The notes: generated by a model not told the origin, from the sequence alone. Positions 42,947 to 54,009 are shown, counted from the stretch's first letter. The stretch is 64,000 bases of DNA from a phage (PZ386953.1), one strand, 5' to 3'. Numbers and translations: made by a program.

Positions 42947-43254
42947 TACTTGAAAATTCCTGGCATATCAAGTATAAGGGGGATTTCTAAAATGGATTTC
43001 CTCCTTTTGATATTTCACCGGGCTGGATATTTTAAAATTCTTAGAAAATCAGAAAATGGATCGAAAACTAAAATGTATTTTTCAGAGTAGGCGCGACAAG
43101 CTGAATAACTCATCCTATCGTTTGCACCATATTCCAGGCCACCATTATAGATTTTCCCACACATGCTCACATCCTTCTACCAGAACTTTCCCACTCGCCC
43201 TTGGCCTTTTATGGCAATAATCCAGCCACTATCTTGAAGTTGCGGTACAGCTTT

Positions 43255-43345
43255 CCAAGTACTCGATCTGTTTTTCGTTTCAAAGATTGAATTTTCTGAA
43301 AATTTTTCTCGATAAATTTCCAAGTACTCGATCTGTTTTTCGTTT
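43255..43345. repeat. pair of 26-29 bp direct repeats
   Basis: CCAAGTACTCGATCTGTTTTTCGTTT at about 43255 and 43320, with further GAAAATGGAT-like short repeats around them. Confidence 0.6.
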
Positions 43346-43551
43346 TCTGAATCGGATTTTCTGGAAATCGTTCCAGCTCTCTACCTGAAATTTTTGGGGA
43401 CGAAATCGATTTTTCGTTTTCAGAAATGGATTTTTAAAATTTCTATATGGGAATATTTTATGGGATACTGTTTTATAGGAAATTGTTACGGAGGGTAATT
43501 AGCATGCTAATTAAATTTATTAAATGCGAGGAGTTCTCATTTAGAATTTTG

Positions 43552-44845: not shown

Positions 44846-44927
44846 AAATCATTGACACGCTGCAAAATTTAAGTAAACTAGACACAAAAGGCGGGAATGT
44901 TTCCCGCCAGCACAAAGGAAAAAGATC

Positions 44928-45323
44928 ATGAATAAGAACGTACGCCGCATCATGAACGAACTGGCAAACGATGAAAAAATTATTGATATGCATTTGGTCA
45001 ACATTTGCCGCCGTTGTGTAACATATAACAACCGCGCCGCAAAAGCGCGTGAGATGAACGCAAAAGGCACCTTAAAGCCCTTTCAGGTGGTTGTAAAATC
45101 TATAACTAGCGCAGCAGGCCAGGCGCAGGACCACAACAACGAGAGCGCTAATATTGATCCGTCTTACGTAATGAAACGGATCCGGACTTGCAAGAATAAA
45201 GAGCAGGTATATAACGTCATAGATTGGCTGGACTCCCTGGGCGATGTGGTTTACAATAGGTTTTCTGCAGCTATCGAGATCCAGCTTGACAGATTGGACG
45301 GGAAAGTACTAAAAACTTATTGA
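44928..45323 (+). CDS. hypothetical early protein
   Basis: 131 aa; preceded by promoter TTGACA and 5'UTR hairpin GGCGGGAA-TGTT-TCCCGCC. Confidence 0.5.
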   Translation: MNKNVRRIMNELANDEKIIDMHLVNICRRCVTYNNRAAKAREMNAKGTLKPFQVVVKSITSAAGQAQDHNNESANIDPSYVMKRIRTCKNKEQVYNVIDWLDSLGDVVYNRFSAAIEIQLDRLDGKVLKTY

Positions 45324-45325
45324 GT

Positions 45326-45370
45326 TTATTTTTAGATGGCCTTGACACCAGGGCCATCAATAAAGTAAAC
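45326..45370 (+). promoter_or_regulatory. conserved 45-bp element, copy 1 (TTGACA held in hairpin loop)
   Basis: TTATTTTTAGATGGCCTTGACACCAGGGCCATCAATAAAGTAAAC; identical copy at 45947, near-identical at 49662. Confidence 0.6.
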
Positions 45371-45403
45371 TAACCACAGTTGAGCGGAAAAGGAGGCTTA
45401 AAG

Positions 45404-45523
45404 ATGAGCACTACACGCCAGCACACAAAGGTAACCATCATCGTTTGCATCATTGGGTACATCCTGGCGCAAATGTTGATGGGTAGCGCCAACGGTGTCG
45501 CAAAATTTTTCTTAAACTTTTAA
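45404..45523 (+). CDS. hydrophobic micropeptide (39 aa)
   Basis: AAGGAGG SD then ATG; sequence MSTTRQHTKVTIIVCIIGYILAQMLMGSANGVAKFFLNF; below the 60-aa ORF cutoff. Confidence 0.35.
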   Translation: MSTTRQHTKVTIIVCIIGYILAQMLMGSANGVAKFFLNF

Positions 45524-45602
45524 TTGACAAGCTAACTTAAATCGATATAATAAGCACATAAACGGGAAAACTTCCCAGAACACACAAAAGGAGAAAAACA
45601 CC

Positions 45603-45944
45603 ATGACTACTATGACCGCCTCAGAAAAAGCTATGCAGATCGCTGAACTGAAAAAACAGATCGCAGACCTTGAGAATAAGATCGATAACTTTGAAATCGA
45701 CGAGGACAAGTACGACGAAAACTATGATGAATGGTTAGACGAGATCTACGGCGAAATTATGATCGGAAACATTTCTTTTCTTCCGTCGCGTATCCTCAAG
45801 GAGCTAGATCCTATCGCTTACCGCTGCGGATTTAGCGACTACATCGACAGCCTGGATATTGAGAACGATGAAGAATACCAGGAATTACAGACAGAGTTAG
45901 AAGAAGCAAAAGAAGAGCTTGCGGAGCTGGAAGAAAACGAGTAA
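45603..45944 (+). CDS. acidic coiled-coil early protein
   Basis: Promoter TTGACA/TATAAT, 5'UTR hairpin GGGAAAACTTCCC, SD AAAGGAG; 113 aa. Confidence 0.5.
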   Translation: MTTMTASEKAMQIAELKKQIADLENKIDNFEIDEDKYDENYDEWLDEIYGEIMIGNISFLPSRILKELDPIAYRCGFSDYIDSLDIENDEEYQELQTELEEAKEELAELEENE

Positions 45945-45946
45945 GC

Positions 45947-45991
45947 TTATTTTTAGATGGCCTTGACACCAGGGCCATCAATAAAGTAAAC
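45947..45991 (+). promoter_or_regulatory. conserved 45-bp element, copy 2
   Basis: Identical to copy 1. Confidence 0.6.
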
Positions 45992-46033
45992 TTTATACTG
46001 TTAACACTGAACGAATGCATAGGAGTTAAAACC

Positions 46034-46279
46034 ATGGCAGCACTAATCACCAAATATTATGCCCCTACCAATACCAAAAGCGCCCGTATCATGGTAAAAG
46101 GCTTCGGACGTAAAAAGGTGTACACCTGGGATTATGCCTTAGACACGGAAGACAACTACACCAACGCAATGACCGATTTTATTAATGAACTAAATAAGCA
46201 GATCTTGACAAGTTATAAAGTGACCGATATTGCTTATATAGGTGAAGGCGGGATCTGTTTTGTAGGCATTGTGAAATAG
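46034..46279 (+). CDS. hypothetical early protein
   Basis: 81 aa; translation initiation region ATAGGAGTTAAAACCATGGC shared with gene at 50624. Confidence 0.5.
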   Translation: MAALITKYYAPTNTKSARIMVKGFGRKKVYTWDYALDTEDNYTNAMTDFINELNKQILTSYKVTDIAYIGEGGICFVGIVK

Positions 46280-46353
46280 TTATTTTTTCGGTGGTCCTGG
46301 TTGCAGGGCCATCTATAAAGATAATTTATTAACACCATGAAAGGAGAAAGTAC

Positions 46354-46707
46354 ATGATCAGCGGGGCAAGTTTTATTATTGGCGCTATTGCTACGGCTTT
46401 AATTGTAAATAAGATCCAGGATAAAAAGGAAAGAGGAAGTACCGCCCTTGCAGAATATCCATTTTGGGCATTCAACGATAACGAAGATTATATTATAAAG
46501 TATAAAAATAAAGAAGGTGACCAAGTAACACCGCGACCGATCCCGGCTTACAAAATGCAGGAAACACTATACCGCCTGAAGGCGGGGGGCGCAAAAATTG
46601 TAGACTTTTGGGGATACGACCACACAGATCAGGAAGTTATAAAGCGCCGTATCCGGGCTATTCAGGCCAATATTGAAGTTAGCAAGGGGGGAATATATGA
46701 AAATTAA
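46354..46707 (+). CDS. early protein with N-terminal TM helix
   Basis: MISGASFIIGAIATALIV; SD AAAGGAG. Confidence 0.5.
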   Translation: MISGASFIIGAIATALIVNKIQDKKERGSTALAEYPFWAFNDNEDYIIKYKNKEGDQVTPRPIPAYKMQETLYRLKAGGAKIVDFWGYDHTDQEVIKRRIRAIQANIEVSKGGIYEN

Positions 46708-46894
46708 TTTCGAGAAAATTGTAAAGCGCCCTCATGATTCCGAAGAGCTGCCAGAACGCCGCCAGCGTAACAATAAACTGAATAAGCCAAAAAGGTTTGG
46801 GAAGATCTGGCGTAATCATTATGATCGTAAATTGCCCGGCCTACTTTTGGAACGTGAACGACAGGCAGAACGATACCGCCATAAAGACAAATAA
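46697..46894 (+). CDS. small basic protein
   Basis: In-frame ATG inside track ORF 46673-46894; Arg/Lys-rich. Confidence 0.4.
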   Translation: MKINFEKIVKRPHDSEELPERRQRNNKLNKPKRFGKIWRNHYDRKLPGLLLERERQAERYRHKDK

Positions 46895-46903
46895 CAACCA
46901 ACT

Positions 46904-46930
46904 CCCCGCCATTGTGCGGGGCTTTTTATT
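46904..46930 (+). terminator. intrinsic terminator
   Basis: CCCCGC-CATTGT-GCGGGG then CTTTTTATTT. Confidence 0.7.
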
Positions 46931-47053
46931 TCTATCCTACGAATAGCGCCCCTGGTTGGCCCTGTAAGCGCCAAAAAGGCCCCCACCTATGCAATCGCCC
47001 CCCTTTAACCTGAAAACATCGCCCATGGCCGTTTCATGGCGTTAAAAATATCA

Positions 47054-47081
47054 TTGACATCGTCAACAGGTTAGCTATACT
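47054..47081 (+). promoter_or_regulatory. sigma70-like promoter
   Basis: TTGACA - 16 bp - TATACT. Confidence 0.55.
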
Positions 47082-47113
47082 AACCACATCAAAGAGAGAA
47101 AGGAGTAAACGCC

Positions 47114-47374
47114 ATGCGTAAATTAAAAAATTTTGATAAAGTTGATGTTATCCTGAATAATTTTTACTACTGCAACAACAAGGCTATTTGGTGGCGTGAT
47201 AGTTCCACCGATAAAGTTAAGGCGCGCTTTCTTCAAGGGCACTGGCAAGGCCGCCCAGTGATTAAAATCATGGGGCAATTGGTAGCTTTCAAAAATTGCC
47301 GCCGTGCTGATGATATCGAAGATATCTTGAACGTTTTACGCTACAACAATTTTAAAAATAGTGTTGACAAGTAA
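47114..47374 (+). CDS. hypothetical early protein
   Basis: 86 aa; SD AAAGGAG. Confidence 0.5.
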   Translation: MRKLKNFDKVDVILNNFYYCNNKAIWWRDSSTDKVKARFLQGHWQGRPVIKIMGQLVAFKNCRRADDIEDILNVLRYNNFKNSVDK

Positions 47375-47391
47375 GATTAAACAAGTATACT
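47364..47391 (+). promoter_or_regulatory. sigma70-like promoter followed by 5'UTR hairpin
   Basis: TTGACA - 16 bp - TATACT; hairpin GGCGGGAAAAATTCCCGCC at about 47402-47420. Confidence 0.55.
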
Positions 47392-47448
47392 TAATCACAT
47401 AGGCGGGAAAAATTCCCGCCACCGCCGAAGAAAATAGGAGAAAATATC

Positions 47449-48072
47449 ATGACTACCGTTAACATTACCGCAGGTTACAATTTATCTTTCGACGTGCTGA
47501 CCGACGAACAAAAAGAAAAAGCCGTTGAAATGGTCCGCGAAAGAGAGGAAAACAGCGGTGATAACTTTTTCGCAGAAAGCGTAATTGAATACTATAAAGA
47601 ATATGTTTTTCCAGAGTATGGCCTTGAAGATACCGAAGTACATTGGTCAGGCTTTTGGTGCCAGGGTGACGGCGCGTCAATCAGTGCTGAAAACGTGGAT
47701 TTAGAAAAATTTTTGCGTAAAGTAAAGGCCCTGACCAAGTTCCGATCAATTCGTCACTTGTTCGGCACAATGCACGATGGCGAGTTATCAGCCAGTGTTG
47801 AACGCGACAAGTACAGCCATTACAGCCATGAAAACACTGTAAGCGGGTACATTGATACCACTTGGCTAGATCTGACCGCCAAACAAGAAAACAAAGTGGA
47901 AGACCTGGAAGAACTGATCACCGAGACGGTACGGGAGCTATCCCGCAAGGTTTACGTAGACCTGGAGGAGGCCTATCTAGAACAGTTCACCGCAGAAAAC
48001 CTGATCGGCCTTATCGAGGCCAATAACTGGCGGTTTGATGTCGATGAATATGGTGAGATGACTTTTTCATAA
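47449..48072 (+). CDS. hypothetical early protein
   Basis: 207 aa; SD ATAGGAGAAAA. Confidence 0.5.
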   Translation: MTTVNITAGYNLSFDVLTDEQKEKAVEMVREREENSGDNFFAESVIEYYKEYVFPEYGLEDTEVHWSGFWCQGDGASISAENVDLEKFLRKVKALTKFRSIRHLFGTMHDGELSASVERDKYSHYSHENTVSGYIDTTWLDLTAKQENKVEDLEELITETVRELSRKVYVDLEEAYLEQFTAENLIGLIEANNWRFDVDEYGEMTFS

Positions 48073-48080
48073 ATAAAGTG

Positions 48081-48108
48081 TTGCAATAACCTAAAAACCT
48101 GCTATATT
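48081..48108 (+). promoter_or_regulatory. sigma70-like promoter
   Basis: TTGCAA - 16 bp - TATATT; 5'UTR hairpin GGGGGCAAGACGTTTGCCCC follows. Confidence 0.45.
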
Positions 48109-48162
48109 AAAACTCAAGGGGGCAAGACGTTTGCCCCAACACAAAACAAAGAGGATAACATC

Positions 48163-48543
48163 ATGAAAAACACTACCAAGGCTATTGACACCGTTATGTT
48201 TAACCTGGTTACATTCCGTGAAGATATGAAAGATCTTCCTCGTGAAACAGTGTGCGACCATATCGAAAACTATCGCAAACTAATCAAAGAGTTGCCTTTA
48301 AAACGTGATCAATATGCGGCTAACGCCATGCTTAATGCCATGATCAAAAAGATGATCCAGTGTGATTTAACCCTGGCCTATGATTATGCAGGCGGTCGTT
48401 TTGCAGTATACAATCAGCCCGTGCCCGGTATGAGCACCACCGAAGAATTGCACGCGCTCAATCTAAAACAAGACGTGTGGGATAGTATGCCTCGCGTGGT
48501 GGTATGGGTAGAAAGCGGAAAGATTTACGGCGATAATTTTTAA
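48163..48543 (+). CDS. hypothetical early protein
   Basis: 126 aa; SD AAGAGGATAACA. Confidence 0.5.
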   Translation: MKNTTKAIDTVMFNLVTFREDMKDLPRETVCDHIENYRKLIKELPLKRDQYAANAMLNAMIKKMIQCDLTLAYDYAGGRFAVYNQPVPGMSTTEELHALNLKQDVWDSMPRVVVWVESGKIYGDNF

Positions 48544-48552
48544 TCAGGTAGC

Positions 48553-48580
48553 AGGCGGCATATTTGCCGCCTTATTGTTA
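48553..48580 (+). terminator. intrinsic terminator (weak T-tract)
   Basis: AGGCGGCA-TATT-TGCCGCCT then TATTGTT. Confidence 0.5.
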
Positions 48581-48607
48581 ATCAGAACTGTAAAAGAGGT
48601 ACATAGA

Positions 48608-48979
48608 ATGGAATTTATTATTTTGGCTGTATTGGTTGCCTTGTTTAACGCCTGGATCGCTGGCAAGATGGGAAGATCCGCCTTTTTATGGTTTATTATA
48701 TCTATTTTCCTGGGGGTGGTTGCAACTATTGTATTGGTTATCCTTGCAATTGTTGACAAGGGGAATAATAGAAAGGGTAAAGTATTTTCAGACCTGTACG
48801 ACGCTCAAACGTTTGTCAACGCCTATTATAGTGATCTTCCAGTCTCCCTACGCTGCAGCCTGGCACAACAGGTTTTTGATGAGGCTAAAACCAGAGATCA
48901 AGCCCATGAGATATGTTTAACTGAGGCGGATCGCCTATTTGAGAGGAATAGAAAATATGTGGGCCAACCGTTTAAATAA
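48608..48979 (+). CDS. small inner-membrane protein (two TM helices)
   Basis: ATG after AAAGAGG SD; MEFIILAVLVALFNAWIAG ... LWFIISIFLGVVATIVLVILAIV. Confidence 0.5.
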   Translation: MEFIILAVLVALFNAWIAGKMGRSAFLWFIISIFLGVVATIVLVILAIVDKGNNRKGKVFSDLYDAQTFVNAYYSDLPVSLRCSLAQQVFDEAKTRDQAHEICLTEADRLFERNRKYVGQPFK

Positions 48980-49089
48980 TGCCACGTTAATTAATCCCTT
49001 TAGTGAAGATTTGAAGCCAGCCGCCTGGCGTGACGGATTCAATAACGAACGCTTTATTTTCAGGCCTGATCTTGAGGAATTTTATAACA

Positions 49090-49215
49090 ATGGATCGAAC
49101 AACAGCGGAGATAATTTTTCTTGTGGTGTGCGTGGTGATGGTACTCCTGGGGGCCATTGTAAACCACGTCACTACTACCAGAAGGAAAGGGGGAGACGAT
49201 GACAACCAAGGATAA
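49090..49215 (+). CDS. hydrophobic micropeptide (41 aa), uncertain
   Basis: Internal Met of track ORF 49030-49215; TM segment IIFLVVCVVMVLLGAIV. Confidence 0.3.
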   Translation: MDRTTAEIIFLVVCVVMVLLGAIVNHVTTTRRKGGDDDNQG

Positions 49216-49318
49216 GCCATGTACCGATAAGGTGCGCCGCGTTATGGTATGGCTTGAGATTATCGCCCTTGAAATATTGCTAGGCGTAGGGATGTACTTT
49301 ATCGCTGTAAGTAACTAA
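49199..49318 (+). CDS. hydrophobic micropeptide (39 aa)
   Basis: GGGGGAG SD; ATGA overlap with upstream stop; TM segment VMVWLEIIALEILLGVGMYFIAV; terminator immediately downstream. Confidence 0.35.
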   Translation: MTTKDKPCTDKVRRVMVWLEIIALEILLGVGMYFIAVSN

Positions 49319-49322
49319 GAAC

Positions 49323-49350
49323 GGCCCCCGATCATGGGGGCCTATCTTTT
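49323..49350 (+). terminator. intrinsic terminator
   Basis: GGCCCCC-GATCAT-GGGGGCC then TATCTTTT. Confidence 0.7.
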
Positions 49351-49457
49351 AAAAAAATTTTTCTTCCGTGGTGTTGCAATCCGATCCGGAATGTGGATAA
49401 TAACAATCAACGGGGAGCTAATCCCCACCACCACAAAAACCAGAAAGGAGAAACAAA

Positions 49458-49658
49458 ATGAGCAACAATATCCGCGTTATTAACTTCAAAAAAGAAGAAA
49501 AAATTGCCGTGCTGATTGACGGTCAAGAAATCTTCAAGGGCGACTATGAAGATCATCAAACGGCGATTAGTATCACTCGCGTGATTGGTTACCATAATTT
49601 CTACCCCCAAGGCGCTGAGGCAGCAGTTAAACGAATCAAAGAGATTGTAGGCCTGTAA
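49458..49658 (+). CDS. hypothetical early protein
   Basis: 66 aa; SD AAAGGAGAAA. Confidence 0.5.
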   Translation: MSNNIRVINFKKEEKIAVLIDGQEIFKGDYEDHQTAISITRVIGYHNFYPQGAEAAVKRIKEIVGL

Positions 49659-49661
49659 AAT

Positions 49662-49706
49662 TTATTTTTAGATGGCCTTGACTTCAGGGCCATCAATAAA
49701 GTAAAT
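49662..49706 (+). promoter_or_regulatory. conserved 45-bp element, copy 3
   Basis: TTATTTTTAGATGGCCTTGACTTCAGGGCCATCAATAAAGTAAAT (3 mismatches to copy 1). Confidence 0.55.
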
Positions 49707-49749
49707 TTAAACCCTGTTAAAATAATCAGTGCAAAAAGGAGTAATGGTC

Positions 49750-50049
49750 ATGTTTATACCCGCCAATAATCTTTATTTCTTTGATGGTCAGATCGTAGAC
49801 GGTGTGGAAGTGGAGATCACTGGGTGCCCTGGTGGTCAGGCTATGACTTTTCGGAATAATGCCTTTGATGATTCTCGTATCGTTATGAGAATGGAAGTTA
49901 CAAAGCTGGACGACAAGAAAACACTCATTGACTATTCCGTGAAAGATCATCCAGACCACCACATGATCTATGGTGATTTGTGCATTGTTGACCGTGACAA
50001 GGTGAGCGGCATTGTGATCGCTATTGTGAACGATGTTTTCTCAAACTAA
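49750..50049 (+). CDS. hypothetical early protein
   Basis: Start chosen 8 nt after AAGGAG SD inside track ORF 49729-50049. Confidence 0.45.
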   Translation: MFIPANNLYFFDGQIVDGVEVEITGCPGGQAMTFRNNAFDDSRIVMRMEVTKLDDKKTLIDYSVKDHPDHHMIYGDLCIVDRDKVSGIVIAIVNDVFSN

Positions 50050-50066
50050 TTTCAGCAGGTGATTTT

Positions 50067-50417
50067 ATGAAAGTTAAATTATATTACCTCAATGAGCTTA
50101 ACCCGCTTGCACAAGTCCACGCCCTGGATAACGCTGTTTATTGTGAAAAGTCTATATACAGTGTTGAGCTTAACGCTATGCGTGAACGCCTTAAAGGCGG
50201 TTACTTTGACATCCATGCTGCAATCAACGGCCTGAATATAGAATTTATCCGCTTACGTAACAGCCGCCAGAATCTGGCAAGAATGGAACAAGATCCGGCC
50301 CACCTTCGTAAGCTGGTTATTGAAAATCATCTGATGTTTAATGCCGATGGTGATTATTACCATTTTCACCGTAAACGCTGGTACCGTAGCGGCAATATAG
50401 GAAAGAATGCAAAATAA
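50067..50417 (+). CDS. hypothetical early protein
   Basis: 116-aa ORF. Confidence 0.5.
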   Translation: MKVKLYYLNELNPLAQVHALDNAVYCEKSIYSVELNAMRERLKGGYFDIHAAINGLNIEFIRLRNSRQNLARMEQDPAHLRKLVIENHLMFNADGDYYHFHRKRWYRSGNIGKNAK

Positions 50418-53096: not shown

Positions 53097-53184
53097 ATAA
53101 AAAGTGCTTTGGTACTGATTTTGGGGGTTGACTTGTTCGGCCCCTTTTGCTATTCTTATTAAACGGGCGGCACTTGGGAACAGG

Positions 53185-53914: not shown

Positions 53915-53980
53915 TACAACAAGTTACATGGTCAGGGGCAATAAAGCCCCTTGATCACATAAAAATTATGCTATCCTTGG

Positions 53981-54009
53981 TTGACAGGGATCGGCAGTTT
54001 TGCTATATT
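53981..54009 (+). promoter_or_regulatory. sigma70-like promoter
   Basis: TTGACA - 17 bp - TATATT. Confidence 0.55.

Follow-up and report, generated by a model that had tools for sequence, protein, structure and literature searches.

Location and distribution of the repeat copies

The 64,000-nucleotide (nt) stretch of phage DNA analyzed here (PZ386953.1; hereafter the window, numbered from its first letter) comes from an rV5-like myovirus of the genus Vequintavirus, with 97.7 % identity to records C12 and EdH4, and contains four copies of an intergenic hairpin element, all situated in a span of 4.4 kb inside a long early cluster of small genes on the plus strand. Copies 1 and 2 contain identical 45-mers (45326-45370 and 45947-45991, + strand) and copy 3, in the same orientation, a 45-mer (49662-49706) with three mismatches to them; 45-mer matches appeared in 0 of 100 shuffles of the sequence. 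A preliminary description of this DNA gave the right coordinates and identities for these three, overlooking a fourth, diverged copy at 46278-46326 (TTATTTTTTCGGTGGTCCTGGTTGCAGGGCCATCTATAAAGATAATT), which was identified here with a looser pattern (TTATTTTT...ATAAAG) and a covariance model. This model detected only the four plus-strand copies in the window, at 71-79 bits and with minus-strand echoes of 29-41 bits, and no further diverged members in the other 82 kb of the EdH4 genome.

In the four copies the start of the hairpin falls within the stop codon of the upstream gene, in agreement with the previous observation that each 45-mer directly follows a stop codon. Copy 1 (45323-45371, + strand; ΔG -25.1 kcal/mol, z-score -6.1, 74.4 bits) is opened by the TGA (45321-45323) of a 131-amino acid (aa) early gene (44928-45323, + strand, phrog_13245), copy 2 (45944-45992, + strand; -22.3 kcal/mol, z -4.4, 74.6 bits) by the TAA (45942-45944) of a 113-aa gene (45603-45944, + strand), and copy 3 (49658-49708, + strand; -23.6 kcal/mol, z -5.5, 78.9 bits) by the TAA (49656-49658) of a 66-aa gene (49458-49658, + strand). 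Copy 4 (46278-46326, + strand; -24.4 kcal/mol, 71.5 bits) starts in the TAG of an 81-aa gene (46034-46279, + strand) located between copies 2 and 4. From the end of the hairpin there are 28-43 nt to the next start codon and 19-29 nt to the next Shine-Dalgarno (SD) sequence; the 30-45 bp formerly given for the SD sequence suits the start codon instead. The 19-29 nt left between hairpin and SD sequence were the reason for rejecting a role as translational operator.

A 117-aa gene (46354-46707, + strand) lies downstream of copy 4 and a 99-aa gene (49750-50049, + strand) downstream of copy 3. No usable promoter was found between copy 4 and the 117-aa gene, so transcription of this gene must read through the copy 4 hairpin. 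All the flanking genes, including that of 131 aa and that of 81 aa, belong to PHROG families of unknown function, and the homologs of the 81-aa gene outside the genus are from unrelated siphophages and Pseudomonas phages.

A blastn search of the element against all phages returned only Vequintavirus, with 121 records and around three detectable places in each. Scanning IMG/VR with a 17-mer from the 3′ arm yielded 18 loci, three of them from genuine relatives and the others being chance matches within coding sequence, and tblastn searches with the 81-aa and 113-aa genes, both of which are scattered, did not identify orthologous copies of the element in other genera, although the loci in Serratia phage Kashira and Citrobacter phage Tr1 brought to light the promoter-hairpin layout described below. 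Rfam 15 produced no match in the window at its gathering thresholds and none on the elements at E ≤ 1, and the sequence of the element was not found in the literature searched. The elements are unannotated in the curated rV5 record and absent from the rV5 promoter table (PMC3606486, Table S4). The record of phage Murica labels the same 45 bp as "terminator" at two sites, a label that is not used for the elements in the curated rV5 and EdH4 records.

Structure of the hairpin and its embedded promoter-like motif

Folded as sense-strand RNA, every copy adopts the same two-part hairpin, with energies from -22 to -25 kcal/mol and z-scores from -4.4 to -6.1, versus -17 kcal/mol and z -2.4 for the opposite strand. 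In copies 1-3, an upper stem of 10 bp (GAUGGCCUUG/CAGGGCCAUC), including one U.G pair, is closed by the tetraloop ACAC or ACUU, and a 2x3 internal loop (UA/AAU) separates it from an A/U lower stem of 10-11 bp that starts in the upstream stop codon. The upper stem of copy 1 pairs 45335-45344 with 45349-45358 around the tetraloop ACAC (45345-45348), and its lower stem pairs 45323-45332 with 45362-45371 (all + strand), starting at the last base of the TGA of the 131-aa gene. Copy 2 has a single mismatch, in the outer lower stem, and copy 3 a loop ACUU and an 11-bp lower stem containing A-U where copy 1 has G-C, which is a compensatory change. The upper stem of copy 4 (GGUGGUCCUG/CAGGGCCAUC) is kept via two G.U pairs and closed by a GUUG loop, and its lower stem is maintained through A-U/U-A swaps. 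The structure first proposed, a 7-bp stem around a 9-nt loop (TTGACACCA), is hence extended to a 10-bp stem continued by a 10-bp A/U lower stem across the internal loop; of the -35 hexamer TTGACA, which had been placed in the loop, only ACA(C) is there, while TTG is base-paired in the stem. In copy 4 of phage Alma (L001 2280-2328), two single-base insertions (CGGGTGG and CAGTGGCC), which may be sequencing errors in that assembly, would make the upper stem bulge.

To examine the conservation of the structure, 36 distinct copies were collected from 15 genomes, comprising the window itself, 12 relatives in GenBank and, in IMG/VR, three loci on two contigs. Standard pairs occupied 97.5 % of the pair cells, decreasing to 38-56 % when the partners were slid by 1-3 columns. 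Four pairs of the lower stem showed double-sided changes (G-C/A-U, U-A/C-G, A-U/U-A and the series A-U, G.U, G-C), and five pairs of the upper stem varied on one side only, always through G.U, with 99.7 % still paired. Within each paralog, polymorphism affected 14 of 44 unpaired positions versus 1-8 of 40 in the stem arms. Pairing also depended on the strand, being 97.5 % for plus-strand RNA, 85.0 % for minus-strand RNA and 84.2 % with Watson-Crick pairs only, and the pair cells included 95 G.U versus six A.C. This strand asymmetry is decisive for assigning the structure to the sense-strand RNA. The DNA folds were weak, with -12.3 and -10.7 kcal/mol for copy 1 and -7.6 and -4.9 kcal/mol, with loss of the lower stem, for copy 4. 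These comparisons support, without being overwhelming, that selection acts on the hairpin in the sense-strand RNA and not as a DNA cruciform. The antisense-strand RNA was also considered and rejected, its folds being weaker and its model scores around 35 bits lower.

As the preliminary description indicated, a -10-like hexamer TAAACT follows the stem, and copies 1 and 2 contain the sigma70-like motif TTGACA-18-TAAACT, with a 10/12 match to consensus (-35 at 45342-45347 and -10 at 45366-45371 in copy 1; 45963-45992 in copy 2; + strand). Copy 3 contains TTGACT-18-TAAATT (49678-49707, + strand; 9/12) and copy 4 has CTGGTT at the place of the -35. In copies 1-3 the -10 coincides with the 3′ lower arm, and the -35 is overlapped by the upper stem. 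None of the 26 distinct type 1-3 copies deviated from TTGAC, whose last two bases are the first two of the loop, while the other two loop bases varied, and the 3′ lower arm was less variable than its pairing partner (2/40 versus 8/40). Additionally, promoter P44852 of the window shares TTGACAC and AAGTAAACTA (7 + 10 nt) with the element, and P47054 shares ACTAACCACA (10 nt) with the right flank of copy 1. From the scan counts, we estimate that a 10/12 match in a given 45 bp would be expected in about 1 % of cases. An embedded promoter is thus plausible, on sequence grounds, in copies 1-3. The region upstream of the motif is AT-rich, although as a T-tract, with the GC-rich GATGGCC abutting the -35. 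The clear early promoters of this phage have AAAA(N3-5) before TTGACA and spacers of 16-17 nt, resembling the Certrevirus consensus AAAA(N3)TGTTGAC...TATAAT (PMC7344957), and the element departs from both.

A layout combining promoter and hairpin recurs in P53123 and P53981 of the window, in Serratia phage Kashira (Vequintavirinae) and in Citrobacter phage Tr1 (Stephanstirmvirinae). The two window promoters (TTGACT-17-TATTCT and TTGACA-17-TATATT, with TG before the -10) carry hairpins over the -35, at 53123-53145 and 53972-53990, followed by UUUUG, and by their sequence these are terminator-promoter composites. The stem of P53981 (CCUUG/CAGGG, U.G included) equals the top five pairs of the upper stem of the 45-mer. 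Kashira (L034) and Tr1 (L035) have many early intergenic regions with stable hairpins, devoid of a U-tract, between or over near-consensus sigma70 boxes, often with the -10 TATAAT in the loop (e.g., L034 6137-6217 and 6620-6700, L035 6788-6858), and one of these promoter hairpins is a two-part helix of 11 + 8 bp.

The form of the hairpin is reminiscent of bacterial RNase III substrates. For comparison we folded the T7 intergenic gaps in which Dunn and Studier (1983) reportedly placed the five early sites R0.3, R0.5, R1, R1.1 and R1.3. In these folds a tetraloop caps a GC-rich upper stem of about 10 bp, below which an asymmetric internal loop leads into an A/U-rich lower stem; a U-tract is lacking, promoters lie alongside, and the cut falls on the 3′ side of the internal loop. 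According to published rules (PMC1540722, PMC3867540), the enzyme needs around two helical turns of double-stranded RNA, with coaxial stacking allowed across small loops, and a scissile bond 11 bp or more away from the tetraloop; the distal box is optimally UA/UG, with U.G stringent, and GC/CG is excluded from positions 2 and 4 of the proximal box. The internal loop confines cleavage to one strand and leaves a protective 3′ hairpin (PMC1540722, PMC3867540). We deduced the positions of both boxes from the published text and the T7 sequence. The element has 10 bp, a 2x3 internal loop and another 10-11 bp, which amounts to the two turns, and its 10-bp upper stem plus an A.A position precede the internal loop, in line with the minimum distance and in the register of the folded T7 R1.1. 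In copies 1-3 the closing pair is immediately followed by U-A/U.G, and proximal-box positions 2 and 4 are A-U and A.A, respectively; the distal box of copy 4 is UA/CG, as in T7 R0.5, and its proximal-box position 2 is G.U. By this analogy, the hairpin is probably an RNase III-type processing and stabilization site. The predicted cut would separate CAAU from AAAG after 45361, 45982 and 49697, and UAU from AAAG after 46316 in copy 4, and the processed upstream message would end in ...GGCCAUCAAU.

Recombination between copies and loss of a cassette

Copies 1 and 2 delimit a 621-bp unit (45372-45992, + strand) consisting of a cassette plus one copy of the repeat. The cassette includes, on the plus strand, a first gene for a 39-aa hydrophobic product (MSTTRQHTKVTIIVCIIGYILAQMLMGSANGVAKFFLNF, phrog_16391; 45404-45523), a perfect promoter TTGACA-16-TATAAT (45524-45551) and the 113-aa gene whose stop codon opens copy 2. 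This 39-aa open reading frame is annotated in the curated rV5 record and left out of several other records. Phages magaca and ECP32, like IMG/VR contig L012, lack precisely this 621-bp unit: after the 131-aa gene they have just one copy, a chimera whose left flank is that of copy 1 and whose right flank is that of copy 2. Magaca is 99.3-99.8 % identical, on both sides of the site, to the window and Alma, which bear the cassette, and the left flank of ECP32 groups with phiWec193, TP14 and rV5, all of them also bearing it. Since magaca and ECP32 belong to different lineages, at least two independent events used the same junction. Records with the cassette interior number 115, and those with the neighboring gene 117, indicating that the loss is a rare, derived state. 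Moreover, the rare loop variants ACAC and ACUU appear in both copies 1 and 2 of the same genome, and the fact that the three near-identical copies draw on one pool of variants indicates exchange between them. From these sequence comparisons, the copies are demonstrably homologous recombination joints mediating the loss of the cassette; this role, which did not figure in the preliminary description, is the property of the element with the best evidence.

The region is plastic, with at least five indel sites in 12 kb among the relatives. Lineage affinities switch near copies 3 and 4, albeit not strictly inside them, which is supportive only. Phages rV5, SYGMH1 and BP9 and contig L012 lack a 116-aa gene (50067-50417); when the ends of this second indel (50043-50406) were tested for bounding repeats, its junction showed only microhomology, so not all the indels in the region use repeats.

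Other features were noted in the region and in its relatives. A second conserved hairpin, GGCGGGAA-NNN-TTCCCGCC, is located in 5′ untranslated regions just downstream of early promoters (44890-44908 and 47402-47420 in the window). It is present in all the Vequintavirus relatives fetched, four times within 8 kb in Kashira (L034 2631, 3063, 3911 and 7277) and once in Tr1 (L035 747), together with a GCGGGGAAATGGTTCCCCGC variant, which makes it conserved in two subfamilies; a 5′ stabilizer and a protein-binding site are possible roles. A gene-free stretch of 557 nt (42947-43503) contains three direct repeats of around 47 nt (at 43249, 43314 and 43388; spacing of 65 and 74 nt) and long hairpins, and a gene-free stretch of 1459 nt in Kashira has similar CTCGATCGGTTTTTC repeats. 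The former may be the "non-coding" box of the rV5 paper, and could be iteron-like or a non-coding RNA. Finally, 17 records flagged as UNVERIFIED are assigned to "Campylobacter phage" (C12, A12a, A147 and others; MG065635, MG065666, MG065644 and others) and show 92-98 % identity to rV5-like E. coli phages in this region, making the Campylobacter host assignment doubtful.

Interpretation and comparison with known systems

Promoter-early stem-loop (PeSL) cassettes were described in the T4-like phages RB49/phi1, PST/T4 and nt-1/KVP40 (PMC2839356; PMC4122927). We consider it somewhat probable that the element is a composite cassette of the PeSL type, located between genes of an rV5-like phage, in which a single sequence of about 50 bp has three jobs. 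In the first one, read-through transcripts from the upstream gene fold into the conserved two-part hairpin that starts in the stop codon, and this would define and protect the upstream message at its 3′ end, through endonucleolytic processing instead of intrinsic termination. The likeliest nuclease would be host RNase III, with a cut 3′ of the internal loop that leaves the GC-rich upper hairpin as a 3′ stabilizer, as at the T7 early sites. In the second job, limited to copies 1-3, a moderately good sigma70 promoter would restart transcription approximately 7 nt past the hairpin. The third job, established by comparative genomics, is homologous recombination: crossover between copies 1 and 2 has removed the 621-bp cassette at least twice, and the copies evolve in concert. 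The PeSL kind is already known, and the element is a new example of it outside the T4 family.

Several observations weigh against this composite interpretation. The GC-rich GATGGCC before the -35, the 18-nt spacer and the 4/6 match of the -10 are at odds with the promoter; copy 4, lacking the -35, is not composite, and as its lower stem covaries, the -10-like GATAAT changes to GATAGT and GACAGT. This covariation comes from around 10 compatible and 3-4 disruptive substitution events in related sequences, and is supportive but not overwhelming. By the in vitro rules copy 4 may be a poorer substrate for RNase III, and the UA/UG match is suggestive and not diagnostic, since, according to a review, natural substrates do not conserve the distal box. 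There are four copies per genome here versus about 50 PeSLs in RB49/phi1. Transcript data for Vequintavirus were not found in the literature searched, and we infer processing, 3′ ends and promoter activity.

A part of these observations would agree with an element acting only as RNA, that is, an intercistronic RNase III/RNase E site with a 3′ protective hairpin. The promoter hexamers would then be non-functional by-products, TTG being required by the upper stem and TAAACT forming the 3′ arm of the lower one, and recombination would be incidental to the sequence identity of the copies. Copy 4, with a complete hairpin, no -35 and a drifting GATAAT, speaks for this possibility, as do the spacer and upstream context, unlike those of the promoters of the phage itself, the evidence for structure, which lies entirely at the RNA level, and the register shared with T7 R1.1. 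Against an RNA-only role stand the invariant TTGAC next to variable loop positions, a -10 arm more constant than its partner, the sequences shared with P44852 and P47054, the recurrence of promoter-embedded hairpins in related phages and a promoter match seldom expected by chance; we regard it as rather unlikely. An attenuator or terminator, by which the hairpin stops or lowers read-through from upstream early promoters, is clearly improbable. Such a function has been proposed for PeSL stem-loops, and it would accord with the label in the Murica record, with a stable GC-rich hairpin directly after the stop codon and with the reduction in lacZ expression caused by a PeSL stem-loop, about that of rrnB T1 (PMC2839356). 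However, a U-tract follows neither the upper stem (AAUAAAG) nor the full hairpin (AACCACA, UUUAUAC or AAACCCU), the T-tract being on the wrong, 5′, side; the consensus terminator scan did not list the elements, as anticipated by the preliminary description from the absence of a T-tract after the stem; and the curated rV5 and EdH4 records do not use that label. The lack of a U-tract and the read-through required by the genes after copy 4, without another promoter, argue against a strong terminator, and an intrinsic terminator was rejected on both grounds.

The preliminary description had favored a structured promoter or operator, possibly sensing supercoiling or bound by a phage regulator; as a DNA model, this would be a cruciform extruded under supercoiling or a site for a dimeric regulator, gating the embedded promoter. 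The overlap of promoter-like hexamers with an inverted repeat, and the hairpins over the -35 in other promoters of the window, lend this some appeal, and the promoter component endures, with a near-consensus sigma70-like motif in three of the four copies and recurrent promoter-embedded hairpins. The structure, nonetheless, belongs to the RNA. The predominance of G.U over A.C and the 84 % of Watson-Crick pairing conflict with a DNA structure, and the half-sites of copy 4 differ at 3/10 positions as DNA while being fully paired as RNA; this copy keeps its hairpin without a -35, and as DNA it folds weakly and misses the lower stem. A variable loop with covarying stems is the signature of a folded strand and not of a duplex recognized by a protein. 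The supercoil-sensing cruciform and the palindromic operator were consequently rejected, given the strand asymmetry and the weak DNA folds, and we find this model very improbable.

Returning to the PeSL-type cassette, its principle might tentatively apply more generally, as a way in which large virulent myoviruses of enterobacteria (Vequintavirinae, Stephanstirmvirinae) organize their early regions, joining an RNase III-type end with a protective hairpin, a promoter built into the hairpin-encoding DNA and a portable homologous joint, although at present we would consider such generality doubtful. If true, a general module would swap small genes of unknown function within and between phage lineages. 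The composite reading would extend promoter/stem-loop recombination joints from T4-like to rV5-like phages, which are widely used in phage therapy and biocontrol, and would correct a database annotation that is "terminator" in one record and missing in others. It also offers a base-precise prediction for RNase III, cheaply testable, in a phage group without a transcript map, and natural joints tolerating insertion and deletion could possibly be used to engineer payload genes into rV5-like phages.

Among known systems, the T7 early RNase III signals are, like the element, mutually similar hairpins, each placed right behind the stop codon of an early gene within a polycistronic transcript, with interleaved promoters and no U-tract. 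Counted from the loop, copies 1-3 have the register of T7 R1.1: closing pair, U-A, U.G, then A-U at position 2 and, at position 4, a pair that is non-canonical. Outside these matched positions the sequences are not homologous. The distal box and proximal-box position 2 of copy 4 depart from this register; the rV5-like copies, unlike the T7 signals, recombine and are almost identical among themselves, and their cleavage is a prediction. REP elements of E. coli are also repeated imperfect palindromes located after stop codons in operons, where their 3′ hairpins stabilize the upstream message, and they can act, as the element does, as recombination sites. They are, in contrast, chromosomal, number in the hundreds, are mobilized by RAYT transposases and contain no promoter motif. 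With the sigma70-like early promoters of the Vequintavirinae (PMC3606486, PMC7344957) the element shares the -35 TTGACA and the location in a cluster of small early genes, but it lacks the upstream AAAA tract, has a spacer of 18 nt and is absent from the rV5 promoter list.

PeSLs are defined by a sigma70 early promoter with a stem-loop, often containing G-T pairs, between or overlapping the -35 and -10 boxes; they start at the upstream stop codon in an AT-rich stretch and end with the downstream SD sequence and start codon (PMC2839356). They concentrate in plastic regions of small genes of unknown function, where recombination deletes or inserts the genes that they flank (PMC2839356), and in the literature searched they are reported only from T4-like phages. 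The element differs from them in belonging to a phage of another subfamily, Vequintavirinae, and in its sub-consensus promoter, with an 18-nt spacer and -10 TAAACT, which is absent from one copy. The correspondence with the promoter of the definition is consequently partial, with 10/12 in copies 1-2 and 9/12 in copy 3, all with 18-nt spacers, and no -35 in copy 4. Its hairpin is a 20-bp two-part helix with a T-tract on the 5′ side and an A-rich 3′ side, compared with the GN-loop-CN or A3-4G3-loop-C3T3-4 hairpins of PeSLs; the PeSL kind further comprises demonstrated promoter and terminator/attenuator activity and mini-circles detectable by inverse PCR, and for the element promoter activity is a prediction. 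As to shared features, both are repeated intergenic modules that start from a stop codon in an AT-rich stretch, with an SD sequence and start codon following, have sigma70-type boxes overlapped by a G-T-containing stem-loop and occupy a plastic early region, and in both, where one phage has two copies with a cassette between them, a close relative has a single chimeric copy left by recombination.

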